64,000 bases of DNA from an uncultured archaeon. Lineage in GTDB: Archaea > Asgardarchaeota > Thorarchaeia > Thorarchaeales > Thorarchaeaceae. Under the pieces are notes generated by a model, which was not told where the DNA came from, searched no databases, and was given only the letters and a program-made list of their open reading frames with translations. The stretch lies in the NCBI GenBank assembly GCA_964473825.1, contig CAYYQL010000002.1:128001-192000 (forward strand), in the 5' to 3' direction. Within the stretch, counting starts at the first letter, position 1. Each line of letters starts with the position of its first letter. Positions 13,616 to 35,965 of this stretch are shown in pieces. Position numbers and translations under genes: made by a program.

Positions 13616-14815
<1,200 letters not shown>

Positions 14816-17473: not shown

Positions 17474-17474
17474 A

Positions 17475-20400
17475 TTAGATCATCTCCTTGAGCCTGAGTC
17501 TACAGGCAAGTCCCAGCGACATCATTTCCTGCAGTAGAAGCTTGAATGCATACGACACGGTGATATTGCTCACCTTAGCGCTGGTACCACAGATGGGGCA
17601 GTATGTCATGTCCTTATTCCTATCATAGACCCCAATGAGGCCACATTCCTCACAGACAAGCATACTGCTCTTGTCTGATTCGTCCAAAAGGCGGCCCTTG
17701 AGAAGGATTGCCGCGCCGTGCCCAATCAGTACATCACGCTCCATCTCTCCGAACCTGAGCCCGCCCTCTCGCGCACGCCCCTCTGTGGGTTGTCTTGTAA
17801 GGATCTGGACAGGGCCACGAGCGCGAGCGTGAATCTTGTCAGCCACCATGTGGTGAAGCTTCTGATAATAGATTACACCGACAAAGACATCGGTTGTGAG
17901 TTTCTCCCCTGTGATGCCAGAGTACATGGTTTCGCGACCGTTGTACTGGAGACCGTGCCCCTGTAGCTGGTCGAACAGCTCCTGCTCGGTGACACCACAG
18001 AACGGGGTAGCATCCTCTTGTTCGCCCTCCATACAGGCTGCCTTTCCGGCAATCATCTCAAGAATCTGACCGATTGTCATTCGACTTGGGATAGCATGAG
18101 GATTGATTATCAGATCGGGAACAACTCCATCCTCGGTGAATGGCACGTCTTGTTGGGGTACGACATATCCAATGACACCCTTCTGTCCGTGTCGTGAAGC
18201 GTACTTGTCGCCTAGCTCAGGTACTCGCAAGTCACGTACTTTCACCTTCACAAGACGGTTTCCGTCAATGGTTTCTGTAAGGATGACACTGTCTACAACA
18301 CCCGATTCGCCATGTCTCACCGCGACGGAGGTTTCACGACGGTTTGGTGAAGCAATCTCAAACTCTGAGTATTCTTCAAGGAAGCGTGGGGGAGATGTTC
18401 GTCCAATCAGTACATCACCGCCCTGCACCTCAACCTCAGTTTCGATGATTCCGTCTTCACCAAGATTGCGATATGACTCAGAGGCTCTATAGCCCCGCAC
18501 GCTGCGTTCAGGAATCTCAAATCGATCCTCTTGACCACCAGGGTATTTCCGCTCCTCGCTCTCATATACACGAGCAAAGGTGCTTCTTCCCAGACCTCTT
18601 TCGATGGAGGCCTTGTTCATTATGAGTGCGTCTTCTATGTTGTAACCCTCAAAGGAGAGAATTGCAACAACAAAGTTCTGTCCGGCCGGACGCTCTTCGT
18701 AGCCAATGGAATCCATGGCACGAGTCTTGACAAGCGGTATCTGAGGATAGTGGAAGAAATGGGAACGGGTATCTGCACGATACTTGAAGTTTGAAGCAGG
18801 CACGCCCACGGATTGCTTTGCCATTCCAGCCATGTAGACGTTTCGAGGAGACTGATTTCGCTCAGGGAAAGGAATAAGGGCGGCAGAAATACCAAGAATG
18901 GTTGCAGGAACAATCTCAAGGTGCGTGGTATTAGGTCCGATTTCTTCAGGACCCATTGCAATCAACGCATTTTCTTCTTCTTCTGCGTCAAGAAACTCAA
19001 CAATCCCGTTCCGCAAGAGGTCTGGATAGGCCCATTCGCCATCATCAATCATGCGAAGATGTTCATCTGTCAAACGACTGCGCCCATTCTCTACAACAAT
19101 CAGTGGCCGACGGACACGTCCGGCATCACAGTTCACCTGAACTTCGTGAGTGCCATCGTAATAGGCAATGTTTACCTCTGAGTCTATCTCTCCAGCACGG
19201 CGTTTCTGAATCATGGTCTTGGCCAAGACCTGAGGGGCTGGATGAACACCTACAAGTCTACCGTTGAGAAAGACATCGGCCCATTTCGAGTCCCTCTTGC
19301 CTTTGAGCTCCTCGATGGGCTCTACCTCTGCATTGAGCATTGTCCGCTCCACAGCCTCTTCGTCTGTTCCCACGGAGATGTAGGCCATCATTGCTATGTT
19401 CTTTACAAGACCACAGTTTGGTCCTTCAGGTGTTTCATTAGGACATATCTTTCCCCAGTGGGTCGAGTGAAGGTCTCTGGCCTCAAAGTGAGGTTGTGAC
19501 CTGGACAACGGTGAAACAACCCTTCGCAGGTGAGAGAGTGATGATATGTAGTTGGTGCGATCTAGTAGTTGGGATACGCCCGCCTTTCCGCCAACCCAAT
19601 TACCTGTAGCAAGAGCATGTTTCAAGCGCTGGGTAATGACATCGGCACGGACAGCAGTTCTGATGTTCGGTTTCCGACCGCGAACTGCCGTACGTTCAAG
19701 CTGGTACTTGATGTCCCTTGTCAGAGAATAGAGAGCGACTCTGAATAATGACATCAGTAAATCGCCAGAGAGCTTCAGTCGCTTGTTTGCATAATGGTCC
19801 TTGTCGTCTGGCTGTCTCTTGTTGAGTACAAGCTGAAGAAGTCTCTCCACCATCTGACCAAGATAGTATGCCTTCTTGAGGCGATGGTCTTCTTCTGTGC
19901 CAACGTGAGGCAGAAGATATCGATCCAAGACTTTCTCGGCTCTGGCTAAACGATAGTCCTTCGTCTGGCCCACTGCAACTCGTTTACCGAGAAAATCGAG
20001 TGCGTTCTCAAGGGTTGAACCCTCCTCATCGTCCATTTTGACATTGATTGGTTGAGCTTGTTCAATTGTTACAATCAGTTCATTGCGAATCTCATCATCA
20101 TCTGAGATTACATCAACAATCTCCCTATCGGACTCTAGACCCAATGCTTTCATCAGGATTGCTAGGGGTATCTTGCCTGGGACAGATGGAAATGATACAC
20201 GAAGCTCTCCGGTCTTCTTTCTCTCAATGGTGACAGGTGCACGGAAACCACGAGAAGTTGAGAATACTTTACCGACGTGCGTGTAACTGGAACTCTTACT
20301 GGCCTCTTCAATCAGGATTCTGTTGGGGGCAAGATCTTCTTGGGTGACAAGAACTCGTTCAGATCCATTGATGATGAAATAGCCACCCGGATCTTTCGGG

Positions 20401-20840
20401 TCTTCGCCGTGCTGGATGAGCTCCTCATCCGACATTCCATGAAGGAGACACTTCTCGCTACGAAGCATGATTGGCAAATCACCAATGTATATCCGAAGCG
20501 TTTCCATTCGGGTAGTAGATGAGTCTTCTTTTCTGACAGGAGTCATGTGAAGATACAGCTTGCTAGCGTAGGTCAAATTCCGAATACGTGCCTCATTGGG
20601 ATAGAGAGGGTGTTCACTGCCGTCTGCCTCGCGGACTGAAGGACTCTCAATCTCAATATCTCCCAGATCTACATAGTAGCCTTCCACTTTCGGATTCAAC
20701 CGAGCAACACTATCAACTACATCCTTCAATTCGTGCTTCACGAATCGATTGAATGAATCGAGATGCTGCCCAACTAAACCTCTGTCTCTGAAATACGCTT
20801 CAATTACTGGCCAATACTTTTGGCGCTCTTCGACACCCAA
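17475..20840 (-). CDS. rpoB: RNA polymerase subunit B (unsplit)
   Basis: GGYFIINGSERV, GDKYASRHGQKG, GGLRFGEMERD. Confidence 0.99.
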   Translation of the reverse strand: MGVEERQKYWPVIEAYFRDRGLVGQHLDSFNRFVKHELKDVVDSVARLNPKVEGYYVDLGDIEIESPSVREADGSEHPLYPNEARIRNLTYASKLYLHMTPVRKEDSSTTRMETLRIYIGDLPIMLRSEKCLLHGMSDEELIQHGEDPKDPGGYFIINGSERVLVTQEDLAPNRILIEEASKSSSYTHVGKVFSTSRGFRAPVTIERKKTGELRVSFPSVPGKIPLAILMKALGLESDREIVDVISDDDEIRNELIVTIEQAQPINVKMDDEEGSTLENALDFLGKRVAVGQTKDYRLARAEKVLDRYLLPHVGTEEDHRLKKAYYLGQMVERLLQLVLNKRQPDDKDHYANKRLKLSGDLLMSLFRVALYSLTRDIKYQLERTAVRGRKPNIRTAVRADVITQRLKHALATGNWVGGKAGVSQLLDRTNYISSLSHLRRVVSPLSRSQPHFEARDLHSTHWGKICPNETPEGPNCGLVKNIAMMAYISVGTDEEAVERTMLNAEVEPIEELKGKRDSKWADVFLNGRLVGVHPAPQVLAKTMIQKRRAGEIDSEVNIAYYDGTHEVQVNCDAGRVRRPLIVVENGRSRLTDEHLRMIDDGEWAYPDLLRNGIVEFLDAEEEENALIAMGPEEIGPNTTHLEIVPATILGISAALIPFPERNQSPRNVYMAGMAKQSVGVPASNFKYRADTRSHFFHYPQIPLVKTRAMDSIGYEERPAGQNFVVAILSFEGYNIEDALIMNKASIERGLGRSTFARVYESEERKYPGGQEDRFEIPERSVRGYRASESYRNLGEDGIIETEVEVQGGDVLIGRTSPPRFLEEYSEFEIASPNRRETSVAVRHGESGVVDSVILTETIDGNRLVKVKVRDLRVPELGDKYASRHGQKGVIGYVVPQQDVPFTEDGVVPDLIINPHAIPSRMTIGQILEMIAGKAACMEGEQEDATPFCGVTEQELFDQLQGHGLQYNGRETMYSGITGEKLTTDVFVGVIYYQKLHHMVADKIHARARGPVQILTRQPTEGRAREGGLRFGEMERDVLIGHGAAILLKGRLLDESDKSSMLVCEECGLIGVYDRNKDMTYCPICGTSAKVSNITVSYAFKLLLQEMMSLGLACRLRLKEMI

Positions 20841-25592: not shown

Positions 25593-27815
25593 CTGAACGA
25601 TTCCCCAATTGAAATTATCTTTCCCATCTCTGAGGTCAATAGGATTGCAGAGAAGGAATCGACAGGATTTGGCAGAAGACACTATCGTCCAGTATACGTC
25701 ATGCACAAGTGGTGGGCGAGACGGTTGGGTTCTGTGTTTCGGGCGATACTATTGTATACTCTGGCTGATTCCAGCTTAGAAGGGTGGGATGGCAACCCGA
25801 AAAGCCTCTGGCAATTCTATGCTCGCGATGTAACTATGGAACCGAAGACTGTACTCGATCCAATGATGGGTGGCGGAACTACCATTGTTGAGAGTCTGAG
25901 ATTTGGATGTAGAGTCATAGGTGGAGACCTTAATCCTGTAGCTTGGTTTGTCGTCAAGAAACAGGTAGAAGACTTGGACCCGAAGCTGCTAGAGCAGAGT
26001 ATGAAGAAACTGGACGATGATCTGGGCGATGAACTGCGTCGCCACTATGTGACAAAATGCCCTGTATGTGGAAGAGATGCTGAGGGACTCTACTATTTTC
26101 ACACGAAGATGGTATCATGTCCTGACTGTGGTAGAGAACTCCCATTAGTCAGGGATTTCTTTCTTGCTCGCTCTCGCAGAGAAGAGGGGGATGTTGTGGT
26201 GTGTCCCAGCTGTTGGAACGTCTTTGAAACACCGGATGCAGAGAAACATACATCCTGCCCCCAATGTAGCAACGAGTTTGTTCCGAAAAAGTGCGGTCAT
26301 GTAAGGGGGAGAAGTTTCAGGTGCTGCGGTAAAGAGTGTGAGTCGCATAGCATTGTGGATCATATTCAGAAGAACGGGCGACCCTCAGAGAGGATGTATG
26401 CCGTTGAGTTCTACTGTCCCCATTGTGATGATGAGGAAGATTCAAGGCTTAAGAACGGGAGGGGATACAAGACGAGTGATGATCAAGATATACAGCTTCT
26501 CGAGGCTGCACGCGAGGAGTTCGAGAAAATAGGTCATAATTTGCCCATTCCAGACACGCGTATTCCTGATGGAGTTGAAACCCGACGGGCGTTAAACCAT
26601 CAATATAATCGGTTCCGAGATATGTTCAACAAACGTCAGCTGCTGAACCTTGGCAAAATATATCGTTGGATCTTGCAGGAAGAGAATGCGAATCTACGGG
26701 AGTTTCTGATTCTTGCATTCTCTAACTGCTTGAAGTACAACAACATGTTCTGCAAGTATAACGGAACGAGAGGCTTCATAACTGATATATTCCGTACGCA
26801 CTCCTTTTCGCCCTCGATGGCACCTGTCGAGTGCAACTGTTATGATATAACAAAGGGAAGAGGATCTTTCAGTGCCTTTGTGAACTTGGTCATCGAAGGG
26901 AAAGAGTACTGCATGAATCCTTTCGAGAGACACTTTCACCACGGGCAGATGAAGAAGACTCGAACGGAAACACCAATCTCCGGCAATGTCGTCGGTAGCT
27001 ACAAACAGTTAGAGAGTCCCGGAGACACCCTCTTGATGTGCAGTTCCTCTGCTCATCTAGAGATACCAGACAGTTCAGTTGATATCGTGGTCACCGACCC
27101 GCCATATGCGGACAACGTGATGTACTCTGAGCTGTCGAATTTCTTCTATGTCTGGCTGAAAATCGGGCTAGGTAGCGATTATGACGAATTCGGGAGTGCA
27201 CTGGTTCCTTGGGAATCGGAGGTGATAGCAAATAGAGTGCAGAACAAATCACCAGATGACTTCCTAGACGGCCTGCGCAGCATTCTTGAAGAAACAAATC
27301 GGGTGCTGAAGGAAAACGGAATACTTGTCTTCACATTTCATCACAAGTCCTTGGATGCATGGTCTTCTGTGCTGCAGGCTGTGCTAGATGCAGGATTCTT
27401 CATCCGGACAATCTATCCTGTTAGGAGCGAGATGAAGGCATCCACTCACTTTCTAGGCAAGAGCAACATCAAGTACGATGTGATTATTGTCTGTAAGAAG
27501 CGAAAAGAGAAAGGAGAATCCATCACTTGGGCTGAGTTGGCTTCAGAGATTCAGTCTTCTGCAACTCACCTAATGAAACGTATGAACTCCTCGGGTGAGG
27601 ACTTGGGACGGTTAGATAGATATGTCATTGCTGTTGGGAAGTGTTTGGAGCTCTATTCGCAATATTACCCGCAAGTCATAGAAGAGCAGATGCCGGTAGA
27701 TGTGAGAACCGCTGTTGAAAGAATTGAGAATTGGACTCTTGATATCGGTTTCAGAAGAACAGGAGTTGTGGTAGAAGACCAAGGACTGCAAGAATCACCC
27801 CAGTCAGAATCATAG
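25593..27815 (+). CDS. DUF1156-type adenine DNA methyltransferase with Zn-ribbon insert (probable CTG start)
   Basis: PIEIIFPISEVNRIAEKE...HKWWARR N-terminus, DPMMGGGT (motif I), TDPPY (motif IV), many CxxC; SD GGAGGT at 25581-86. Confidence 0.88.
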   Translation: MNDSPIEIIFPISEVNRIAEKESTGFGRRHYRPVYVMHKWWARRLGSVFRAILLYTLADSSLEGWDGNPKSLWQFYARDVTMEPKTVLDPMMGGGTTIVESLRFGCRVIGGDLNPVAWFVVKKQVEDLDPKLLEQSMKKLDDDLGDELRRHYVTKCPVCGRDAEGLYYFHTKMVSCPDCGRELPLVRDFFLARSRREEGDVVVCPSCWNVFETPDAEKHTSCPQCSNEFVPKKCGHVRGRSFRCCGKECESHSIVDHIQKNGRPSERMYAVEFYCPHCDDEEDSRLKNGRGYKTSDDQDIQLLEAAREEFEKIGHNLPIPDTRIPDGVETRRALNHQYNRFRDMFNKRQLLNLGKIYRWILQEENANLREFLILAFSNCLKYNNMFCKYNGTRGFITDIFRTHSFSPSMAPVECNCYDITKGRGSFSAFVNLVIEGKEYCMNPFERHFHHGQMKKTRTETPISGNVVGSYKQLESPGDTLLMCSSSAHLEIPDSSVDIVVTDPPYADNVMYSELSNFFYVWLKIGLGSDYDEFGSALVPWESEVIANRVQNKSPDDFLDGLRSILEETNRVLKENGILVFTFHHKSLDAWSSVLQAVLDAGFFIRTIYPVRSEMKASTHFLGKSNIKYDVIIVCKKRKEKGESITWAELASEIQSSATHLMKRMNSSGEDLGRLDRYVIAVGKCLELYSQYYPQVIEEQMPVDVRTAVERIENWTLDIGFRRTGVVVEDQGLQESPQSES

Positions 27816-28569
27816 TCATGAAAAAGCACACAGCGGTGTCTTTGAGCGTCCAGAAAGGTCTGCGAAGATACGTGCGAGTGTCTTGGTATCCGAAGCCGCG
27901 ACCGTCCATCGATAAAGACAGAGACTCAGCCTTGGTGAGCGCTGACACTAGTAAAGGGAAGAATGTGTAACGGATGGTTCGTAGTGTCTTACTTACTCCT
28001 CCCACCTTAGGATATACTCCCCTTGAGTGTTGAGCCATACGTACGGTTTCATTTTCTTGATCAAAGAGAGGCAAAAAGCGGAGTGCCACTACAAGTCCGA
28101 ACGCGTATCTGTAAGGGATTCCGATGTCTGTGAGAGCATAGGACAAGAGTGTGGGGTCAGTAGTGGCCACAAAGAGCATGCTGGATAGGACTATGACCAG
28201 GAAACGTAGCATTATGGAAACACCACGACTAATGCCGTAGTCTGTCACTGGGAGGGCAGGTCCAACGGGGCCAATCCTTGGAATCAGGTACCAGAAAACG
28301 GTTCCATTCATAGTAACAAGTACTTGAACAATGAACAGCAGAATGGAGAAGACAAGAATGAACCTCAGCTTTCGAACGACTCGTGCAAGAGATACCTTTG
28401 CTAGGCGAAAAGTAAGCAATAGAATGGACAAAACGAGAAGGCCGAATACCCCGTTCTGGTAAAGAATCACTGATGTATTCAAAGCAATTAGTATCCAGAA
28501 TTTTGTCAGGGGATGTAACTGGTGAATGGGGGACTTGACATCCATGAAACCGATTCTAGAAGGCATCAA
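27751..28569 (-). CDS. ecfT: ECF transporter T component
   Basis: HPLTK, ALRFLP, AQHSRG, SMDGRGF, RTYLR. Confidence 0.92.
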   Translation of the reverse strand: MMPSRIGFMDVKSPIHQLHPLTKFWILIALNTSVILYQNGVFGLLVLSILLLTFRLAKVSLARVVRKLRFILVFSILLFIVQVLVTMNGTVFWYLIPRIGPVGPALPVTDYGISRGVSIMLRFLVIVLSSMLFVATTDPTLLSYALTDIGIPYRYAFGLVVALRFLPLFDQENETVRMAQHSRGVYPKVGGVSKTLRTIRYTFFPLLVSALTKAESLSLSMDGRGFGYQDTRTYLRRPFWTLKDTAVCFFMTMILTGVILAVLGLLPQLLFF

Positions 28570-30014
28570 ACATCACCTGGTCTGTTGACGTATTCACTGC
28601 GTCCAAGTCTGCGAAGCTGATTCATGACATCGGCTGGCTTGCCATCGAGTAGAATCCGTCCATCGTCGATGAATACAATTCTGTCGCAGAACTGCACGGC
28701 AAACTGAGAGTCATGAGTCACAACAATGGCAGAGCCTCCACGATTTACTGTTGAGAGAATCATGCTCTGGACAAACTCGCGTCCCTGAACATCTTGGCCG
28801 ATGAAAGGTTCGTCAAGGAGGAGTAGTTCGGGTTCATGCATCATTATGGAAGATATGTTCAGTCTTCTCTTCTGACCGTGGCTTAGGGAGAAGGGATTCC
28901 GAGTACGAGTGTCAGCTAGTCCTGTCAGTTCAAGTAATTCATTGGCCCTTTCAAGGGCCTCCTCTTCCTCCAGTCCGAATATGTCTATGCCGAGAGTCTG
29001 TTCCCTCCATACGGAGGTTTCGAAGATTTGATGATTGGGGTTCTGAAAGACAACAGCAGTCTTTTTTGCAACAGCGGTCTTTGGCAAACTCTCTATTGTT
29101 TCTGAGTCCAGATAGACCAGACCCCTCTGAGGAGATAGCAGTCCTGCAAGAAGCAGCAGAAGGGTAGTCTTACCCGACCCATTATCCCCCATGAGAGCCA
29201 CAACCTCTTTTCTGGCCACTTCGATTGTGATATCCTGAACTGCATGTAGAGAGCCGTAGGAATACGCTATCGATTCTGCCCGAATCAGGGGACGATAATC
29301 TCGTTCAATTGGTGGTCTGATGGCCGAAGAGCTGAATTCGGATGATGGGCTGAAGGGCACGATATCATCACCTGTGAGGGACAATATCCTGTCTGCAATC
29401 GAACGCAGTTTCTCGAAACGATGTTCGATGCACAGTACTCCCATGCCCTGAGACCTTAGGTTTGATAGAACATGACGAAGCTTGGTCGCACCTGCGGGAT
29501 CAAGGCTTGAAGTGGGCTCGTCAAGTATCAGATAATCAGGCTCAGGTGCCAACATCGATGCAATGGCAACACGCTGCTTTTCGCCCCCCGAGAGCTGATA
29601 TGTAGCCCGATCTCTCAGGTCAGTGCGCTCCACTGCCTCGAGGGAACTGGTGACCCTTTGAGCTAGTTCACCTTCAGGAATTAGGAAGTTCTCGGGACCG
29701 AATGCTACTTCATCCGACACGCGCAGGGTACATAGCTGACCCTCGGGATCCTGTTGCACCAGAGCTATCTTCCGAGCTATCTCACTGATTCTCATCGAAT
29801 CTAAGTCATTGTCGTCAACTGCAACATAACCAGAGAGAGTGCCAGCTATTACGTGGGGGATGAATCCCGCGAGACATCTTGCTAGGGTAGACTTACCCGA
29901 ACCGGTTGGACCTGTAAGAAGGACAATTTCTCCTCTGTCCAAGTTCATTGAAACACTGTCAAGAACGATGCTTCCATCAACATATGAGAAACTGACATCT
30001 CTTGCCTCAAGCAT
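28566..30014 (-). CDS. ECF transporter fused double ATPase
   Basis: Two ABC cassettes: GPTGSGKS/LSGGEKQR and GDNGSGKT/LSHGQKRR; QDP/QNP Q-helices. Confidence 0.93.
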   Translation of the reverse strand: MLEARDVSFSYVDGSIVLDSVSMNLDRGEIVLLTGPTGSGKSTLARCLAGFIPHVIAGTLSGYVAVDDNDLDSMRISEIARKIALVQQDPEGQLCTLRVSDEVAFGPENFLIPEGELAQRVTSSLEAVERTDLRDRATYQLSGGEKQRVAIASMLAPEPDYLILDEPTSSLDPAGATKLRHVLSNLRSQGMGVLCIEHRFEKLRSIADRILSLTGDDIVPFSPSSEFSSSAIRPPIERDYRPLIRAESIAYSYGSLHAVQDITIEVARKEVVALMGDNGSGKTTLLLLLAGLLSPQRGLVYLDSETIESLPKTAVAKKTAVVFQNPNHQIFETSVWREQTLGIDIFGLEEEEALERANELLELTGLADTRTRNPFSLSHGQKRRLNISSIMMHEPELLLLDEPFIGQDVQGREFVQSMILSTVNRGGSAIVVTHDSQFAVQFCDRIVFIDDGRILLDGKPADVMNQLRRLGRSEYVNRPGDV

Positions 30015-30025
30015 TCTCTACCCGC

Positions 30026-31084
30026 CTAATAGATATGTAGCTCGGTCACCTGTCTTACCCAAACAGATCCCTCGTAGTTCCCGGCTATCAGCCAGAGGCC
30101 GTCACTAGATTCTGTAAGTAAAAGTCTTTGATCAGCTAGAACTGCCTCGAGATTGAAAGTAATTGTATACCCATCTCTGGCAATCACCTGTATACTACTC
30201 GTCTGTGGCTCTGGTTCTGCTACACCAATAATGGTTGATAGTAAGACCCCTGTGTAGTTAGTTGGAGGAATGTAGGTGTATGCCCCTTGGAGTTCTGCTA
30301 CAATAGTTACTTCATACTCTGAGAAATCAGCATGGTGATATATGTAGGGATTATCAACACGGCCCGTCACCGCACATGAATATGGATCAGCAAATACGTC
30401 TGCAATGGCTACCACGTAATAGGTGGACCCAAGAACAAGAAAGGTCACAAAGACAAACGCGGGAAGATTTCGTCGGATGATAACGGAACGGCCTTCTCTT
30501 TCTGTCACAGGAGGGTGATGTGTCAGACCCGCCTCATCTAGGAAACCCAGAGTTTCCCATGCAAAATAGCCGGCGAATATTATACCCGAACAGAATGCTA
30601 GTATCGTGATTAGGCCTATGTAGATCAAGGGTGTTCCGACAAAGTAGAAGAGCTGGAATGCGATAACGTTGGATGCGGACGACAGACCGGCGAAAAGCCA
30701 CCAGTTCAGTCGTTCCATGGCTGGTCTATCGGACGTAGCGTTAGGAGAAATCGAGGGAATATCAAGGATGATACCTTGAACAAGTGACACGATGACGGTC
30801 ACTATTCCATGTGTACTACCAGTGAACATCTCTACAAATCCTTTCAGGAAGCCAGCGAAAGTGCCAGAGCCACGTTTGGGGACAAGTACTCGAATCAACA
30901 CAATCCAGAAGACATGTAATCCTGCAATGATTTGTCCTGCACCGAAAGGGACTCCAACGGCGATATTAATCAGGTTTCCTAGATAACCAACAAAAGTGCT
31001 AAGAGCCCCACCTAACGAAGAGAGAATGAATAGTGTCACAAGTTCTCTTGTGGTCATAAGGTTCGAGAGGTTTTTCTCTGTCAT
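30026..31084 (-). CDS. ECF S-component (YkoE-like) fused to a C-terminal molybdopterin-binding-fold domain
   Basis: About 6 TM N-terminal region (KRGSG...GFVEMFTG...VQG..D), a further TM, then VTGRV..YTGVLL..ARDGY..WVRQV. Confidence 0.8.
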   Translation of the reverse strand: MTEKNLSNLMTTRELVTLFILSSLGGALSTFVGYLGNLINIAVGVPFGAGQIIAGLHVFWIVLIRVLVPKRGSGTFAGFLKGFVEMFTGSTHGIVTVIVSLVQGIILDIPSISPNATSDRPAMERLNWWLFAGLSSASNVIAFQLFYFVGTPLIYIGLITILAFCSGIIFAGYFAWETLGFLDEAGLTHHPPVTEREGRSVIIRRNLPAFVFVTFLVLGSTYYVVAIADVFADPYSCAVTGRVDNPYIYHHADFSEYEVTIVAELQGAYTYIPPTNYTGVLLSTIIGVAEPEPQTSSIQVIARDGYTITFNLEAVLADQRLLLTESSDGLWLIAGNYEGSVWVRQVTELHIY

Positions 31085-32637
31085 GGTATCACCTCGATAA
31101 TCTGCGTGTAGCGGATCCACCGAGCCCCTGCTGAGAGGTATATGTTACAGCCCGTGCCTGGAGCTGATGTCTGAAGACAGTCCTCAATGCTGTACTGGCA
31201 ATCCTCCGGTAACATCACGAGTCGCAGCCCAATAGACCAGTCAGGAACGGTTGTTCCATTATAGGAATAGGCCAGTATCATGTCGCCTTGCAGCTGGTAC
31301 CAACTTTCGTTCGGATACACATTGCCATAGCAGAATTCTTGTTGGTAGCCATCATTAGCAATCACTCTAACTGTGTTTTCGGGAGTCATGCCACCCACTA
31401 GAGATAACAGGTCTGAAATCTTCACGCCTACGTAGTTACCTTGACCTTGCCAGTTTCCAAGCTGATTCTGGAAGGAGGAGAACCCCTCTATCGCTGGCAA
31501 TTGCATCAGATCTTCTATTGTTAGGGTTATGTCCTCGTCCTTACCCCGAACGACAACTTGATCTCTCGCAAAGGAAGGCTCTCCTAAGAGAATAGGTTCT
31601 ATCTCGATCTGCGAGTCGGACACTGTGACGTTGACATAGTGGTGTATGCCGCCCTTCTCAGCAGCTTCATAGAGAGTGGCACCTGCTCCACCCGTTATGA
31701 CATAGGTCACGTTGTTTCGATTACTGACATTGAACATATGGATGTGGCCTGCAAAGACCACATCCACCGATTCTGATTCGAAGATATCCATGAGGCGCAT
31801 GGCTGTTGTGGTGTTGAGTAATGTATGATTGCCCTCCGGTCGCGGGTCAAATGGCGGGATGTGTGTGAAGACGAATTTGTGCTGTGCCATCGCAGTGGAG
31901 AGGTCATTCTCAAGCCATTGCAGTGTTGTTTCTGATACATCCCCGGCCGATGAGTTGAAGATGATGAAATGCGCGCCACCAAAATCAAAGGAGTAGGTGG
32001 AGGGGCCGTATCTACTCTGATATCGTTGGCCCCCGTTCAACTTGATATCATGATTTCCGGCTGTGAGAAACAGAGGAACAGAGAGATTTACCGCTGTGTC
32101 ATCAAATCGTTGGTATTGTTTCTCTTGACCAAAGGGAGTGATGTCACCACAGTGAAACAGCATATTGGGACGGGCCATATTTGCAGTAGCAATAATCTCC
32201 TCTATGGATCCCTGATACCCCTGCGAGTCGCCAAGTACGAAGAAATTCAGAGGAGGCGTATCTGAGGTTTCCATTGTGATGCTTGCATTGGTCATCTGAG
32301 TTTCTAAGCGAAGCATATTGGATGATACATTTGAGTGTACTATGGAGTAGGGAACATCTGATGAGAAGCTGACTCTTTCTGTGTCGATATTGGTGATTTG
32401 AACATCATGGTTGTTCAGGAAACCGGCTGCATCGGACGAGAGTTTCACTTGCATGGACAGAGCCATTGCACGGATTACCGTCTGATCGGCAGTCTGGGTC
32501 AATACGTGTCCACCTTGGACTACTATTTCCGGTGCCGGAGTGGGACTTTCAGTGTGTATCAGATACACTGACCCTATGCCAGCAATACAGATGATGAGAA
32601 TGCCTACAAGAGCAATAACCTCCCTTTGCTGCTTCAT
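31081..32637 (-). CDS. Exported/membrane-anchored calcineurin-like metallophosphoesterase fused to a molybdopterin-binding-fold domain
   Basis: N-terminal signal anchor; GDSQ, GDIT, GNHD, THIP, GHIH; C-terminal YVGVKISDLL..ANDGY..MILAY..LRLV..RWIR. Confidence 0.85.
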   Translation of the reverse strand: MKQQREVIALVGILIICIAGIGSVYLIHTESPTPAPEIVVQGGHVLTQTADQTVIRAMALSMQVKLSSDAAGFLNNHDVQITNIDTERVSFSSDVPYSIVHSNVSSNMLRLETQMTNASITMETSDTPPLNFFVLGDSQGYQGSIEEIIATANMARPNMLFHCGDITPFGQEKQYQRFDDTAVNLSVPLFLTAGNHDIKLNGGQRYQSRYGPSTYSFDFGGAHFIIFNSSAGDVSETTLQWLENDLSTAMAQHKFVFTHIPPFDPRPEGNHTLLNTTTAMRLMDIFESESVDVVFAGHIHMFNVSNRNNVTYVITGGAGATLYEAAEKGGIHHYVNVTVSDSQIEIEPILLGEPSFARDQVVVRGKDEDITLTIEDLMQLPAIEGFSSFQNQLGNWQGQGNYVGVKISDLLSLVGGMTPENTVRVIANDGYQQEFCYGNVYPNESWYQLQGDMILAYSYNGTTVPDWSIGLRLVMLPEDCQYSIEDCLQTSAPGTGCNIYLSAGARWIRYTQIIEVIP

Positions 32638-32743
32638 CTAGGATTCCAACTCCACTGAGTGATATGCATGACTGTATATTTCGGTTGTGCGAGGTGGTTA
32701 AGAAGCTTGGCACGTGGTCACAGATCAGGAGGGGATTCTCTCC

Positions 32744-34726
32744 TCATTTCTCAGACTTTTTTATCTGCACGGTTGTTGAATTGAAGGAAGACCCCCCACC
32801 AAGTCTTTGGGGTGTTGATAGTGTTATGGAGTTGGTAGGTCTTCCATCTAAATCGGCACCTTGGCGAGGGACCCATAAGACGCCTGATGGAATGGACTCT
32901 GCGAGTCGAGCTTGCATCTTAATCTGCCCGCGTTCGTTTGAGAGTACTACAGTATCTCCTGAACGGATGTTCCTCTCTTTGGCATCGAGCGGATTGATTC
33001 GCACCATAGCAGGAATTGCCCCGAAGACCTCTTGAAATTGAGTATGACTGTATCGTGCCATTGCACTGTTCAAGAGAATGAACTCTTCGGGCTCGGGGGA
33101 TAGCGGAGAATACTGTGGGATAGGTGACAGATCGTAACTGTCAGCCTGAGTAGAATACAATTCGAGTTGCCCAGAGGGCGTAGGGTAATAGTCCAGAGGG
33201 AGATACTCCAATTCTACACACTTCCCACTCATTAGGTCGCCAAATGAGGCCTCTCTCAGCGATTCGTTCATGGCAATCTTCAGTGCGTCCCATGGATTCT
33301 CAAACAACCAATCATTGTCAAGCTTCAAGCGTTTTGCTATCTGACGCATCAACCATATCTCATCTCTGCTCTCGCCGAGAGGCGACACTATATTTCTGGA
33401 TGCCATTGTATAGCGATGCGCCCAAGCAATCGTTACATCGTCTTTTTCCAAGTAGGTACAAGCAGGGAGAATCAGATCTGCATAGTCTGTGGTTTCAGTC
33501 CAATGGGTATCGTGTACAACCACGAAGACATCATCCTGAGAGAGTCCCTCTCTCAAGGGAACTTGGTCGGGAATTGTCAATGCGGGATTCATATTGTAGA
33601 CAAATATGAACTTGAACTCACCACGTTCAATGAGAGGAGCCAAATCTACTTGACTCACAGTTTTCCAGTCGTTTGCTGACTGGTGCTTACCACTCAGATA
33701 CTCGTTGTCAATCTTGAATCCGCTTTCATTACTATAGAAAAAACCTCTGTGCATTCCGACAAGAGCGGGAAGAAGAGCAACAGCCCGAGTTGATTCAGCG
33801 CCCTGTAGATGCTTTTGCATGCCTACCCCTATCATAGTAGCACTGGGCTTCCGATTCGCATACAGATCGCCCAGTTCGCGAATGACTCCCTCGTCCAGAC
33901 CAGATATAGAAGAAGCTTTGGTCAGCGACCAATGGGTAACTTCCTGAGCAAACCGCTCATAACCCGTGGTATGTGTCGCGATGAACTCGTGGTCGGCCTT
34001 GTCGGTTTGGATGAGGTAATTTGCGAGGGAAAGAGCGAGGGGGACATCTGTACTGGGCCGAATTGGAAGCCATTTGTCAGCCTCTTCTACAGTTCGAGTC
34101 CTCCGGGGATCGATAACAATTATCGACGTATCATTCCTATCTCGTGCCTCTAGGGCCATGTCCCATATGTGTGGTGCGCTGACCACGGCATTGAAACCCC
34201 AGAAGACAATCATCTCCATGTGTAGGAGGTCATCAGGTTGAATGCCATAGTCTGAGCCGTAGTGGAGCGAGATGGCATCCCGACCGGACTTTGCACAGAG
34301 GGCATGGTCGGTTCTTGTTGCGCCCAAGGCATTCCAAAGACGCTGAGGAAAATGTAGGGTGAGTAGACCAGTGTTCCCGAAGTAGTCCAATAAGAGAACA
34401 CTTTCCTTTCCATGCTCTTCTATTGTGTTCTCCAGCCTAGTAGCCAGGATTTCTAGTGCCTCTTCCCATGATATCTGGCGCAGTTCATCCTGAGCATTAT
34501 CACGAAGATATGGATGTTCCACACGGTTTGTCACAAGACGCACCATGTCCTTAGCGGCGCGAGGACAGGTTATGCCTCGTGTGACGGGGTGCTCAGAATC
34601 ACCACGAATAGACTCGATTTGGCCGTTAGCATCGAGTGCAACAAGAAGGGTACAAGTGTCATAGCAGTCTCTTGGACAGACTGTTCGAAACTCATAGGGA
34701 GCAGCCATCGGATTTCCTGACTCCAA
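32744..34726 (-). CDS. Mo/W-bisPGD (DMSO reductase family) oxidoreductase
   Basis: CPRDCYDTC...C Fe-S motif, IDPRRTRT, ADLILPACTYLE, C-terminal INPLDA domain. Confidence 0.92.
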   Translation of the reverse strand: MESGNPMAAPYEFRTVCPRDCYDTCTLLVALDANGQIESIRGDSEHPVTRGITCPRAAKDMVRLVTNRVEHPYLRDNAQDELRQISWEEALEILATRLENTIEEHGKESVLLLDYFGNTGLLTLHFPQRLWNALGATRTDHALCAKSGRDAISLHYGSDYGIQPDDLLHMEMIVFWGFNAVVSAPHIWDMALEARDRNDTSIIVIDPRRTRTVEEADKWLPIRPSTDVPLALSLANYLIQTDKADHEFIATHTTGYERFAQEVTHWSLTKASSISGLDEGVIRELGDLYANRKPSATMIGVGMQKHLQGAESTRAVALLPALVGMHRGFFYSNESGFKIDNEYLSGKHQSANDWKTVSQVDLAPLIERGEFKFIFVYNMNPALTIPDQVPLREGLSQDDVFVVVHDTHWTETTDYADLILPACTYLEKDDVTIAWAHRYTMASRNIVSPLGESRDEIWLMRQIAKRLKLDNDWLFENPWDALKIAMNESLREASFGDLMSGKCVELEYLPLDYYPTPSGQLELYSTQADSYDLSPIPQYSPLSPEPEEFILLNSAMARYSHTQFQEVFGAIPAMVRINPLDAKERNIRSGDTVVLSNERGQIKMQARLAESIPSGVLWVPRQGADLDGRPTNSITLSTPQRLGGGSSFNSTTVQIKKSEK

Positions 34727-34777
34727 GTATCGTGGTGGTTTCTTGGTGGTCAGTCCTATATTAAGTGGAGGAATGTG

Positions 34778-35554
34778 TCAATTAACGGGTATTCCTTCCT
34801 GCCTCACACGTTCAGATAGCGTTTTGATACGCTTGTCTTTTCGCCAGACAGCAGTTTCTGCCAGGGTATCGGCAGTAACCGCCTGAAATCTTTCTTCGAT
34901 TGCCCCGGTGCGAGACTGTCCTATCAGGCCAAGATATTCATCAAGCAAAAGCCAGACCATTCTTCGTTTCTCCGGGGTGAAGATTGGGTCGGTATCAAGG
35001 ATACTCGCCGCTATTCCCCCGATGTCGAGAAGCCACGGCCCTTCACGAGCCTCCTCGAAGTCCACCCCCCAGAGCATATCATCAGCAAGAATGAAGTTTC
35101 GGAGACGGGGATCACCTTTGACCATCCCTGTAGTCTTATGGAAGTCGTAGTACCAATGTGCTAGCATTGCTGCGTATCTATTCTCTAGAGTGCGATTGAG
35201 TACATCAACTAATGATTCTCCAGAGATGTATTGCATGAGAATGACGCCGTTTCTTGCGCCGTATACCTCAGGTACGGAGAGCCCTACAGTCCGACAGGTA
35301 ACTAGCAGGTCATGTTCCAGGTCGAAGTGCCCTGTGACAAAGAGCTTACCAATCAGATTCTCTCCAGAAGAGAGGGTGAGTCTGAGAACGACGTTCTTCT
35401 TGCTCCTTAGGTGGTGAACTCCAGTGACCCTGTAAGGACGGCTCTTATGTTCGCCAACAAGCTCCCGGAGAATCTTCACGCGTTCCGCCTCCAGTATTTG
35501 ACCGTCTAGGCCATGTAGTCTTCCAGAGAGTCCGTCAAGAGCGTCCATTGTCAC
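34778..35554 (-). CDS. Protein-kinase-like (RIO/APH-fold) phosphotransferase
   Basis: LMQYISG, KGDPRLRNF, VDFEE. Confidence 0.8.
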   Translation of the reverse strand: MTMDALDGLSGRLHGLDGQILEAERVKILRELVGEHKSRPYRVTGVHHLRSKKNVVLRLTLSSGENLIGKLFVTGHFDLEHDLLVTCRTVGLSVPEVYGARNGVILMQYISGESLVDVLNRTLENRYAAMLAHWYYDFHKTTGMVKGDPRLRNFILADDMLWGVDFEEAREGPWLLDIGGIAASILDTDPIFTPEKRRMVWLLLDEYLGLIGQSRTGAIEERFQAVTADTLAETAVWRKDKRIKTLSERVRQEGIPVN

Positions 35555-35860: not shown

Positions 35861-35965
35861 TGGCGGGCGCGCCAGGATTCGAACCTGGGACATCTTGCTG
35901 GCTTCGGGCCGTCTACGAGAATGACCCACCGAAGGCAAGCACCTTATCCGCTAGATTACGCGCCC
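35861..35965 (-). tRNA. tRNA-Arg(TCG) with 37/38 intron (35900-35928)
   Basis: GGGCGCG/CGCGCCC, CTTGC/GCAAG, BHB, CCA. Confidence 0.94.

Follow-up and report, generated by a model that had tools for sequence, protein, structure and literature searches.

What does the ECF transporter encoded at this thorarchaeal locus import, and what are domains of the Moco-binding fold doing outside the cell in two of the proteins encoded with it? The window (the whole stretch of DNA analysed, 64,000 nt) carries on its minus strand, in this order, genes for a bisPGD enzyme, a membrane-anchored metallophosphoesterase, a YkoE-type ECF S component, a fused EcfA-A' ATPase and EcfT, all tightly coupled; with the kinase gene located upstream, the operon in full covers positions 27751-35554 (Table 1). 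In our opinion this operon is likely to encode a dedicated (group I) ECF importer of a pyranopterin cofactor, which replaces de novo synthesis. This reading rests on gene content, fold and regulation only, without ligand or transport data.

Table 1. Features of the operon and of its SUOX-like domains (positions within the window)
Feature	Position	Strand	Characteristics
Kinase gene	34778..35554	-	cytoplasmic, eukaryotic-like/APH fold, 258 aa
Mo/W-bisPGD oxidoreductase gene	32744..34726	-	cytoplasmic, 660 aa
Ecto-metallophosphoesterase gene	31081..32637	-	membrane-anchored, 518 aa, C-terminal Cys-less SUOX-like domain
SUOX-like (PF00174) domain of the phosphoesterase	31084..31584	-	residues ~352-518, long form, 48-residue insert
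ECF S component gene	30026..31084	-	352 aa; YkoE-type six-helix core, seventh helix and extracellular SUOX/PruR-like domain
SUOX/PruR-like domain of the S component	30029..30379	-	extracellular, residues ~236-352, short form
Fused EcfA-A' ATPase gene	28566..30014	-	482 aa
EcfT gene, transmembrane coupling component	27751..28569	-	272 aa

The five-gene order and the tight coupling, both recognised in an earlier sequence-only reading, held when the junction sequences were re-read. The bisPGD and phosphoesterase genes are separated by 106 nt, the phosphoesterase and S-component genes share an ATGA overlap (the true start of the latter being the ATG at 31084), and a gap of 11 nt precedes the EcfA-A' gene. 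The claim that the couplings are ATGA overlaps or an 11-nt gap held only in part, as the EcfT gene overlaps that of EcfA-A' by a TTGA, or else begins at an ATG one base further on. Moreover, the system limits given in that reading (27751-34726) were too short, the conserved kinase gene upstream having been overlooked, and its statement that the system lies directly behind a Mo/W-bisPGD gene is true at this locus, yet this gene is not a conserved part of it and accompanies the operon in only 7 of the 48 importer-bearing genomes. Genera g1 and g4 alone have it between the kinase and phosphoesterase genes; in G078 and L020 it immediately precedes the kinase gene. Its product combines PF04879, PF00384 and PF01568, with a CxxCxxxC...C cluster motif, a Cys at about residue 144 and no twin-arginine leader; we read it as a client enzyme whose gene is a lineage-specific insert into the operon.

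The importer itself meets the group I (dedicated) ECF criterion, since S, T and A/A' are encoded together, their genes overlapping or lying 11 nt apart. The S component is of the YkoE type both by sequence (PF09819, E 2e-16 in the profile search) and by its six-helix fold; its AF2 model (pLDDT 83) was matched by Foldseek to YkoE (5edl, TMt 0.76), with an additional seventh helix (residues 199-227) and a C-terminal beta domain (236-351). The fused ATPase contains two ABC_tran (PF00005) domains and scores above the cut-offs for both TIGR04521 (348 bits) and TIGR04520 (339 bits), and EcfT matches PF02361 (CbiQ; E 5e-32).

The phosphoesterase, whose gene is next to that of the S component in 22 of 26 genome loci, has a hydrophobic anchor at its N-terminus and a PF00149 domain at residues 131-301. 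In this domain GD, GNHD, H and GHIH are without variation, and the calcineurin-like metal motifs (D-x-H, GD, GNH(D/E), H, GH-x-H) are all present, bar the motif I His, which is replaced by Gln. With the exception of this His, the metal-binding motifs are invariant or nearly so in archaeal and bacterial members. Among its named relatives, cyclic-nucleotide phosphodiesterases are the best matches.

Both the phosphoesterase and the S component end in a SUOX-like domain that topology places outside the cell. The C-terminus of the phosphoesterase (residues 345-518 alone) matches PF00174 with 25.8 bits (E 9e-6; cut-off 24), and that of the S component with 18.1 bits (E 0.002), which is below the gathering cut-off, but many S-component orthologues carry a precomputed PF00174 match. 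In Foldseek, the S-component domain matched SUOX-fold Moco domains (SorA, SoxC, YedY) and PruR with E of about 1e-5; the PruR structures found were 7kom, 7kos and 7rkb (the last with neopterin), at TMt 0.59-0.64. PruR itself binds pterins with a SUOX fold that has no Cys (PMC11194511). The invariant residues of the S-component domain are E264, L265, G267, N276, Y277, G279 and D304-G-Y, and the hairpin of its model bears the invariant E-L-x-G motif (E-L-Q-G-A-Y) and no Cys. The long form in the phosphoesterase has Q-N in the hairpin, also without Cys, and retains several SUOX motifs, GN-x-R, DGY and R-W-V (alignment A2). Relatives of the long form make up 409 clusters, including tandem arrays scoring 1e-42 to PF00174, the arrays of SUOX-like domains reaching 8 copies, and the triad of a SUOX-like protein, a phosphoesterase-SUOX and an S-SUOX protein was found in each locus examined.

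The sequence-only reading had noted sulfite-oxidase/MsrP motifs in both C-terminal domains, which held, all quoted motifs being present. Two of the checks it had proposed, on the Moco fold of these domains and on their topology, were favourable, the nearest non-enzymatic relative being the pterin binder PruR. Its observation that Cys is missing at the Mo-ligand position is consistent with the model hairpin, although the PDB sequence alignment was too weak to confirm it and no residue-level superposition on a solved structure backs it. The lack of a conserved hairpin Cys and of dimerisation or haem domains, together with the extracellular fusion to non-redox proteins, leads us to infer that the ectodomains are binders and not enzymes; the pocket was not compared residue by residue and there are no binding data.

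The product of the upstream gene gave only weak profile matches, all below the cut-offs, to RIO1 (21.6 bits, cut-off 22), APH and Bud32 (36.7 bits, cut-off 125). Its alignment with archaeal and bacterial neighbours revealed the invariants K70, D148-x4-N153 and D165-F-E, and its AF2 model (pLDDT 91.5) gave the best TM-scores with small-molecule kinases, i.e., homoserine kinase II (0.69) and PsiK (0.65), with macrolide phosphotransferases also among the highest and RIO/Bud32 at 0.51-0.57. The protein thus meets the criteria of an APH/choline-kinase-like small-molecule kinase (ELK fold), having the catalytic Lys, the D-x4-N loop, the metal-binding Asp and a helical C-lobe; its substrate is unknown. 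An identity as an atypical RIO/Bud32 kinase was rejected, given the scores below cut-off and a gene that goes with the importer and not with universal genes. It is present in 44 of 48 importer genomes versus 2 of 33 others, and it changes in the same direction as the importer in 13.3 of 15 independent pairs. On this co-occurrence we assign it to the import system, its role in re-phosphorylation being only proposed.

The distribution of the cofactor genes carries most of the argument. In the source genome (G000, 95.7% complete), the profile search found no match to the MoaA C-terminal domain, MoaC, MoaE or MoeA_N, and the sole PF00994 match is CinA-like; nevertheless, 9 AOR and 3 bisPGD matches are present. 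A MobA-like gene is retained there, as it is in 78 of 81 genomes of the class regardless of their importer or biosynthesis state. Among these 81 Thorarchaeia genomes, all of which encode AOR, 48 carry the importer, 29 carry MoaC or MoeA, one carries both and five neither. The sole overlap (G011) has each gene on a contig of ~3 kb, and it should be stressed that all genomes used are MAGs, so that absence and co-presence depend on binning. On the RpoB/RpoA' tree of Thorarchaeia the importer/biosynthesis state changes at least 12 times, and in 15 independent pairs differing in the importer (RpoB+RpoA' tree) biosynthesis was opposite in ~10.5 and the same in 0 (p ~0.002). As a control, the non-Moco pterin gene GCHY-1 showed no link to the importer (39/48 vs 21/28). 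Across 121 Asgard genomes the importer was found in 32, MoaC in 59, neither in 30 and both in none; within families f12 (13 importer vs 1 MoaC) and f21 (4 vs 1) the two always occur in separate genomes. Five more carriers, one of them from the Hadarchaeota and one a bacterial MAG, lack both MoaC and MoeA (0/5 each) and have AOR (5/5). The importer and the cofactor biosynthesis genes have therefore repeatedly excluded each other in evolution. The exclusion is not universal, because in one locus (L109) the cluster adjoins moaA-moaC, together with a xanthine-dehydrogenase-type gene.

This adjacency, and the cyclic-nucleotide phosphodiesterases among the relatives of the phosphoesterase, would fit import of the early intermediate cPMP (cyclic pyranopterin monophosphate), converted inside the cell by unknown enzymes. 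cPMP is the most stable intermediate of the pathway. We nonetheless consider this very unlikely, as MoaE and MoeA, both required after cPMP, are missing in the source genome, and MoeA is missing in all tested carriers.

Regulatory elements were found at bacterial relatives of the cluster. In L114 and L116 the bacterial operon is preceded by the riboswitch RF01055 (71.9 bits), and in the diderm locus L122 this riboswitch is found (74.5 bits) on a TonB-receptor operon that adjoins the cluster and runs divergently; none was detected in the window or in archaeal relatives. Both elements lack P3, and the P3-less variant of the Moco riboswitch was linked to the tungsten cofactor by Regulski et al. 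(PMC2408646). The related clusters of two bacterial lineages thus have Moco/Tuco riboswitches instead of TPP riboswitches. As Moco riboswitches also govern molybdate/tungstate transporters and client enzymes (PMC2408646), the riboswitch ties the cluster to cofactor metabolism and not to import specifically.

The same control, known from modABC/tupABC, would suit an importer of the oxyanions tungstate or molybdate, resembling the CbiMNQO/NikMNQO metal ECFs. Such transporters are commonly under Moco riboswitches, the source genome yielded no clear ModA/WtpA-type binding protein, and a TOBE gene adjoins one bacterial cluster (L125). This possibility appears highly improbable: an oxyanion alone would be useless, because MoeA and the entire pterin pathway are missing in the carriers, the S component is a vitamin-type and not a CbiM/NikM-type one, and the phosphoesterase, the kinase and the pterin-fold domains would have no role in oxyanion uptake.

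Another alternative is an importer or sensor of a non-Mo pterin (of the neopterin/monapterin type, or a folate/methanopterin precursor). In its favour, PruR, the closest non-enzymatic structural relative, has a truncated pocket and binds small pterins, not Moco (PMC11194511), and the short form in the S component is PruR-sized (~120 residues). Against it, GCHY-1, which catalyses the first step of the non-Moco pterin route, occurs irrespective of the importer, the exclusion is specific to Moco genes, the riboswitches are of the Moco/Tuco class, and the phosphoesterase-type domain keeps several SUOX motifs. We therefore give it very little credence.

Finally, the operon could encode an ordinary YkoEDC-type importer of thiamine or hydroxymethylpyrimidine (HMP), with the ecto-phosphoesterase dephosphorylating thiamine phosphates and the extra domains being accessory. 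In favour of this, the S component is a PF09819 member whose model fits YkoE, relatives carry the name 'thiamin/hydroxymethylpyrimidine transport' in their sources, and the source genome, which holds no other YkoE-type S component, gave no ThiC match, so that a need for HMP is possible. However, the added domains have a pterin/Moco fold and not a thiamine-binding one, the bacterial clusters are located at Moco/Tuco riboswitches, the exclusion with MoaC/MoeA is strict and repeated, and the neighbours are Moco enzymes, moaA-moaC and TOBE. The criterion of a TPP riboswitch or thi linkage was not met, as neither the window nor any of 15 related loci showed such a riboswitch and no thi genes were among the neighbours in the loci examined. 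This explanation is thus very improbable, although gene content alone does not exclude a thiamine role, considering the missing ThiC (source genome only) and the YkoE-like S component.

The preferred reading is import of the pyranopterin cofactor, the proposed cargo being molybdopterin in its W or Mo form, or a trimmed derivative; this is inferred, and neither the ligand nor its metal state has been shown. The outward Cys-less SUOX/PruR-like domains of the phosphoesterase and the S component would capture cofactor freed from other cells, and the metallophosphoesterase would trim it, taking off the nucleotide where the cofactor is a dinucleotide and/or the terminal phosphate. Transport inward would then fall to the YkoE-type S component together with EcfT and EcfA-A', and once inside, the co-inherited APH-like kinase may re-phosphorylate, and hence trap, the imported pterin. 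For bisPGD enzymes the MobA-like enzyme would remake the guanine dinucleotide; AOR enzymes would take the pterin form. As MoeA is missing, the metal is probably imported with the pterin; alternatively, an unknown route inserts it. Free cofactor is highly labile and as a rule bound to protein, and its extracellular availability is unproven. Capture, trimming and uptake of a pterin cofactor had been proposed in the sequence-only reading, and all of its computational checks that were run, including co-occurrence with Moco enzymes and loss of moa/moe genes (in Thorarchaeia and across Asgard), were favourable; the support comes from gene content, fold and regulation only, and binding and transport remain inferred.

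In the literature searched, no case of a prokaryotic Moco importer or of prokaryotic Moco uptake was found, and a pterin cofactor import route for microbes is not described. A bolder reading, which may equally well prove right or wrong, is that the W/Mo pyranopterin cofactor is traded as a 'vitamin' among the organisms of anoxic mats and sediments. Many of the Asgard archaea, along with certain Hadarchaeota and bacteria, would then be obligate auxotrophs importing it, probably with its metal, through an ECF system equipped with pterin-binding domains at the surface, an ecto-phosphoesterase and a kinase for trapping. If true, it would provide the first transporter and salvage pathway known for this cofactor in prokaryotes.

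Reliance on a cofactor made by others has a parallel in animals unable to make Moco: the nematode Haemonchus lacks Moco synthesis (PMC7619442), and C. elegans is known to take up dietary Moco; these are, however, eukaryotes, and the transporter is unknown. Riboswitch-controlled cobalamin uptake proceeds through the TonB-dependent receptor BtuB and an inner-membrane ABC importer. Locus L122 resembles it in having a cofactor riboswitch on a TonB-dependent receptor beside an inner-membrane importer, but the riboswitch is of the Moco/Tuco class, the importer is of the ECF type and the archaeal version needs no receptor. In Haemophilus, NadN/e(P4), PnuC and NadR provide an outer phosphoesterase, a transporter of the dephosphorylated vitamin and a trapping cytoplasmic kinase for NAD/nicotinamide riboside; the logic of dephosphorylation, import and re-phosphorylation, inferred and not shown for our system, is the same, while the protein families and the proposed substrate differ.

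With the Moco enzymes of the SUOX family (SorA, SoxC, YedY/MsrP, nitrate reductase; PF00174) the ectodomains share a homologous Moco-binding fold (Pfam, Foldseek) and, in the long form, several motifs; they differ in the features from which binding was inferred above. Periplasmic PruR of Agrobacterium and other Proteobacteria (PDB 7kos, 7rkb; PMC11194511) is likewise a small, secreted, Cys-less, non-enzymatic SUOX fold (Foldseek TMt ~0.64), and it binds a pterin outside the cytoplasm, as is proposed, without binding data, for the S-component domain. PruR signals to the DcpA cyclase/phosphodiesterase and has a P-W motif in place of Cys (PMC11194511); a Tyr/Trp sandwich is a further mark of proteins of its type. 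The domain described here, unlike PruR, is fused to a transporter and a phosphoesterase and forms arrays, with no DcpA-like neighbour in any locus examined, and the P-W motif was not seen in alignments A1 and A2. The closest transporter is YkoEDC(F), the group I thiamine/HMP ECF of Bacillus subtilis (YkoE PDB 5EDL), which shares the operon logic of S, fused A-A' and T, as well as the family and fold of the S component. The S component of the present system differs from it in being fused to a seventh helix and an extracellular SUOX/PruR-like domain, and the system itself is partnered with an ecto-phosphoesterase and a kinase, has bacterial relatives at Moco/Tuco and not TPP riboswitches, and shows a distribution that tracks the loss of Moco synthesis.

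The gene and junction description of the sequence-only reading, in which a phosphoesterase, an S component, a double ATPase and EcfT, all tightly coupled, directly follow a gene of a Mo/W-bisPGD enzyme, held with two corrections. Reading from the bisPGD gene to EcfT, the first two genes are 106 nt apart, the next pair shares an ATGA overlap, a gap of 11 nt comes third, and the last junction is a TTGA overlap, which had been given as ATGA. The upstream kinase gene, which counts as a member of the system, had been overlooked. The parts of the operon, encoded in an assembly (G000) of 95.7% completeness and 4.4% contamination, are shown in the table below. The sequencing runs containing the DNA of the window are microbial-mat metagenomes, and no RNA run is listed among them.

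Table. Coordinates of the operon genes and of further features discussed in the text
Feature	Sequence	Coordinates	Strand	Remarks
Kinase-like gene, 258 aa	window	35554-34778	minus	
Mo/W-bisPGD oxidoreductase, 660 aa	window	34726-32744	minus	
Phosphoesterase, 518 aa	window	32637-31081	minus	N-terminal membrane anchor, calcineurin-like phosphoesterase, C-terminal PF00174-like domain
ECF S component, PF09819 (YkoE-type), 352 aa	window	31084-30026	minus	true start is the ATG at 31084
Fused EcfA-A' ATPase	window	30014-28566	minus	
EcfT	window	28569-27751	minus	
N6/N4 DNA methylase-like gene, 704 aa	window	25701-27815	plus	convergent with EcfT, 65-nt overlap at the EcfT 3' end
tRNA gene (51 bits)	window	35864-35965	minus	about 310 nt upstream of the kinase gene
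rpoB (unsplit, 1121 aa), rpoA', rpoA'' operon	window	13616-20840	minus	7 kb from the importer
Protein with two SUOX-like domains, 428 aa	G000:C54	77-1372 (L031:74-1360)	minus	off-operon
Kinase-retaining locus L119	G080:C127	15000-22000		
Kinase-retaining locus L121	G042:C153			
moaA-moaC and xanthine-dehydrogenase-type Moco enzyme gene	L109	17882-19525		directly after the ECF operon
Small TOBE-domain (molbindin-like) gene	L125	8652-8861		just downstream of the bacterial cluster
Divergent operon headed by RF01055	L122	820-3700	minus	adjoins the ECF cluster
c-di-AMP riboswitch (96.9 bits)	L114	324-459	plus	upstream of a D-Ala-D-Ala-ligase-like gene

About 22 of 26 genome loci retain the gene order kinase, phosphoesterase, S, A-A' and T. 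Genera g1 and g4 are the only ones in which the bisPGD gene is located between the kinase and the phosphoesterase; one further genome (G078) and one further locus (L020) have it immediately past the kinase. As no more than 7 of 48 carriers have it at the operon, it was rejected as a defining part; it is a client enzyme recruited to the operon rather than a core component. This core is also found in other archaea and among bacteria, with at least one additional SUOX-like protein in front, and an APH-like kinase (or an NTPase) usually comes next after it. The metal-binding motifs of the phosphoesterase are kept, with the His of motif I replaced by Gln family-wide. The methylase-like gene is a conserved operon neighbour in many Thorarchaeota loci (55-89% identity), and a tRNA gene lies on the other side.

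At the level of gene content, G000 is a cofactor auxotroph. Searches for MoaC, the MoaA C-terminal domain, MoeA_N and MoaE, each positive in 11 control genomes, gave no match in it, and its sole PF00994 match is CinA-like. The clients of the molybdenum/tungsten pterin cofactor (Moco/Tuco) are nevertheless encoded (nine AOR and three bisPGD matches), and a MobA-like gene is kept, whose best NCBIfam matches are all MobA, under the cut-off.

Counts were made in 81 evenly drawn Thorarchaeia genomes. The S-component fusion (i.e., the YkoE-type S component with a C-terminal SUOX/PruR-like domain, hereafter the importer) is present in 48 of them, MoaC in 26, MoeA_N in 28 and either of the latter, which occur in an essentially identical genome set, in 29. 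Importer and biosynthesis co-occur in one genome and both are missing from five, with AOR present in all 81 (4-14 copies per genome), bisPGD enzymes in 73 and MobA-like genes in 78. The single genome with both the importer and MoeA (G011) was considered as a genuine exception and not relied on; as each of the two genes lies on a contig of about 3 kb, it was not used as evidence either way. One rival explanation, that the system imports oxyanions, is made very unlikely by the lack of both MoeA and the pterin pathway. PF13531 (ModA/WtpA) matched at 1e-10 in 3 of the 81 genomes and is uninformative on the oxyanion uptake of the carriers.

On a tree of RpoB and RpoA' (2003 columns, 76 genomes), both markers of which are encoded in the window, the states are interleaved, with a minimum of 19 changes for the importer and 15 for biosynthesis. 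Fifteen phylogenetically independent pairs, all on supported branches, contrast in the importer; biosynthesis changes in the opposite direction in about 10.5 of them, in the same direction in none, and remains unchanged in 4.5 (sign test, about 0.002). The p-value of a first run, limited to importer-only and biosynthesis-only genomes, was dropped as circular, and the analysis was redone with all rows. It is shown that importer and biosynthesis repeatedly exclude each other in gene content. As a control we used GCHY-1 (MptA/FolE2), which catalyses the first step of the non-Moco pterin route; it was found in 39/48 versus 21/28 genomes, with no link to the importer. This control, together with the riboswitch class described below, makes it very unlikely that the cargo is a small pterin.

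The S-component profile was found in 32, and MoaC in 59, of 121 Asgard genomes that are 80% or more complete, without any overlap. Within family f12, the importer is carried by 13 of 14 genomes and MoaC by the remaining one alone, and in family f21 the importer (four genomes) and MoaC (one) also occur in different genomes. It should be stressed that the phylum and class samples are not independent, because 23 Thorarchaeia genomes are common to both. Neither the importer nor MoaC was found in 30 of the 121 genomes. One genome without the importer and MoaC/MoeA (G016), 96% complete, has five AOR matches; such AOR-bearing genomes might use a divergent or different route. Five further carriers of unknown completeness, reached via their loci (a Hadarchaeota genome, a bacterial MAG, another archaeon and two Thorarchaeota), have 2-10 AOR genes, with MoaC and MoeA_N in none. 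In the metagenomic lineage of locus L109, moaA-moaC and a xanthine-dehydrogenase-type Moco enzyme gene directly follow the ECF operon, which ties the system to Moco metabolism but indicates that the exclusion is not universal. A small TOBE-domain gene was also observed beside the bacterial cluster of L125.

The topology and folds of the surface parts were likewise established. Taken alone, the C-terminus of the phosphoesterase reaches 25.8 bits against PF00174 (cut-off 24) and that of the S component 18.1 bits (E 0.002), below the same cut-off; a precomputed PF00174 match is already present on many S-component orthologues. The AF2 model of the S component, built from 37 orthologues (pLDDT 83), predicts a six-helix S core, a seventh helix (199-227) returning the chain outward and a beta-rich domain (236-351). 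In Foldseek searches, the core matched YkoE (5edl; TMt 0.76) and the domain matched SorA, SoxC, YedY, nitrate reductase and PruR, the "putative pterin binding protein", whose complex with neopterin (7rkb) is among the matches (E values between roughly 1e-5 and 1e-4). PruR is a secreted, Cys-less SUOX fold, which binds pterins in a site homologous to the Moco site (PMC11194511).

The domain exists in two forms. The long one, found in the phosphoesterase, stand-alone proteins and arrays, has the SUOX-like motifs GN-x-R, DGY and R-W-V, and the short one, on the S component, lacks a 48-residue insert and is most strongly conserved in a Cys-free hairpin, E-L-x-G...N-Y-x-G, and in D-G-Y. The earlier claim that no Cys occupies the Mo-ligand position is consistent with this hairpin and remains unproven at residue level, as there is no structural superposition; when PDB sequences were queried with the domain profile, SorA alone was returned (E 0.16), too weak for mapping the Cys position. 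An exhaustive search yielded 409 clusters, including surface proteins of 1-3 kaa in which the domain is repeated in tandem up to eight times (1e-42 to PF00174); the only shorter relatives recovered for the phosphoesterase domain were contig-end fragments. G000 encodes three domain-bearing proteins, and the gene of the third adjoins that of an NAD-dependent LigA-type DNA ligase.

The kinase is co-inherited with the importer, changing in the same direction in 13.3 of the 15 independent pairs. Its catalytic set (Lys70, Asp148-x4-Asn153, Asp165) is complete in the family, even at 27-28% archaeal/bacterial identity. The best TM-scores of its model (pLDDT 91.5) were obtained with small-molecule kinases, i.e., homoserine kinase II (0.69), PsiK (0.65) and macrolide phosphotransferases (0.60); those of RIO and Bud32 were lower (0.51-0.57) and their sequence scores were under the family cut-offs. 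In two biosynthesis-positive genomes (G080 and G042), the kinase is retained with the convergent methylase gene directly next to it, and the five-kb phosphoesterase/S/A-A'/T block is cleanly gone from the same site; the kinase may here be a remnant, or a marker of the empty site.

A riboswitch link was shown in bacteria. In L114/L116, where the operon encodes a SUOX-like lipoprotein, the phosphoesterase, S-SUOX and an A-A'-T fusion, with an APH-like kinase opposite, RF01055 (71.9 bits, gathering 36) lies on the same strand about 290 nt upstream. In L122, from a diderm, RF01055 (74.5 bits) heads a divergent operon whose products are a 272-aa protein without annotation and a TonB-dependent receptor, which by analogy might be the outer-membrane leg of the same uptake route. 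Both aptamers are without the P3 stem, and the P3-less variant was linked to tungsten-cofactor metabolism by Regulski et al. (PMC2408646). Riboswitches of this type also govern transporters of oxyanions as well as client enzymes; they assign the cluster to Moco/Tuco metabolism without proving import of the cofactor. Neither the window nor archaeal loci L107-L110, L016, L024 and L025 nor bacterial loci L111, L113 and L123-L125 gave a riboswitch match. The contig of L114 also bears a c-di-AMP riboswitch.

A thiamine/HMP importer has to be considered as well, in view of the S-component family and of the lack of any ThiC match in G000, a single genome, which is therefore a probable auxotroph for the thiamine pyrimidine as well; the S component of the operon is the only YkoE-type one there. 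The class of the riboswitches and the pterin fold speak against a thiamine/HMP importer, as do the neighbouring genes and the pattern of exclusion, and we consider it very unlikely.

The cargo is likely a molybdopterin-type cofactor, although no binding or transport data support this. In the putative scheme, surface SUOX/PruR-like domains would capture released cofactor, the phosphoesterase would trim the nucleotide and/or phosphate, the ECF module would bring the trimmed species in, the kinase would re-phosphorylate and so trap it, and MobA would rebuild the dinucleotide for bisPGD enzymes. In this detail the scheme is inferred and could as easily be wrong as right, perhaps slightly more easily. 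With MoaE and MoeA lost, cPMP and a metal-free pterin are disfavoured as the cargo, and a metal-loaded species or an unknown insertase is favoured; this inference is the weakest link of the scheme.

According to textbook accounts, in which the cofactor is too unstable to share, no microbe bearing Mo/W enzymes fails to make its own. No Moco-specific ECF system or prokaryotic uptake of the cofactor was found in the full text searched, and a survey of riboswitch regulons lists B12, thiamin, riboflavin, queuosine and folate as categories of coenzyme uptake, Moco being absent. New here are the exclusion at the scale of the class and of the phylum, a count of independent switches on the tree, the contrasts provided by MobA and GCHY-1, the loci with an empty site, and the TonB receptor under riboswitch control next to the cluster of a diderm. 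If the reading is true, much of Thorarchaeia (48/81 sampled) and whole other Asgard families rely on neighbours for a cofactor serving 4-14 aldehyde:ferredoxin oxidoreductases per Thorarchaeia genome, which bears on their resistance to cultivation and syntrophic lifestyle, and metabolic models equating "no moa genes" with "no Mo/W enzymes" are wrong. It would also give a concrete handle on the uptake of a cofactor whose delivery is a medical problem too; the S component, ectodomain, phosphoesterase and kinase can each be expressed.

We class the system among the ECF vitamin importers, whose S components would thereby gain a form with a fused extracellular receptor domain. Vitamin salvage by dephosphorylation, import and rephosphorylation exists, and the proposed scheme resembles it; the role suggested for the TonB-dependent receptor of L122 is likewise that of BtuB, the outer-membrane receptor for B12.
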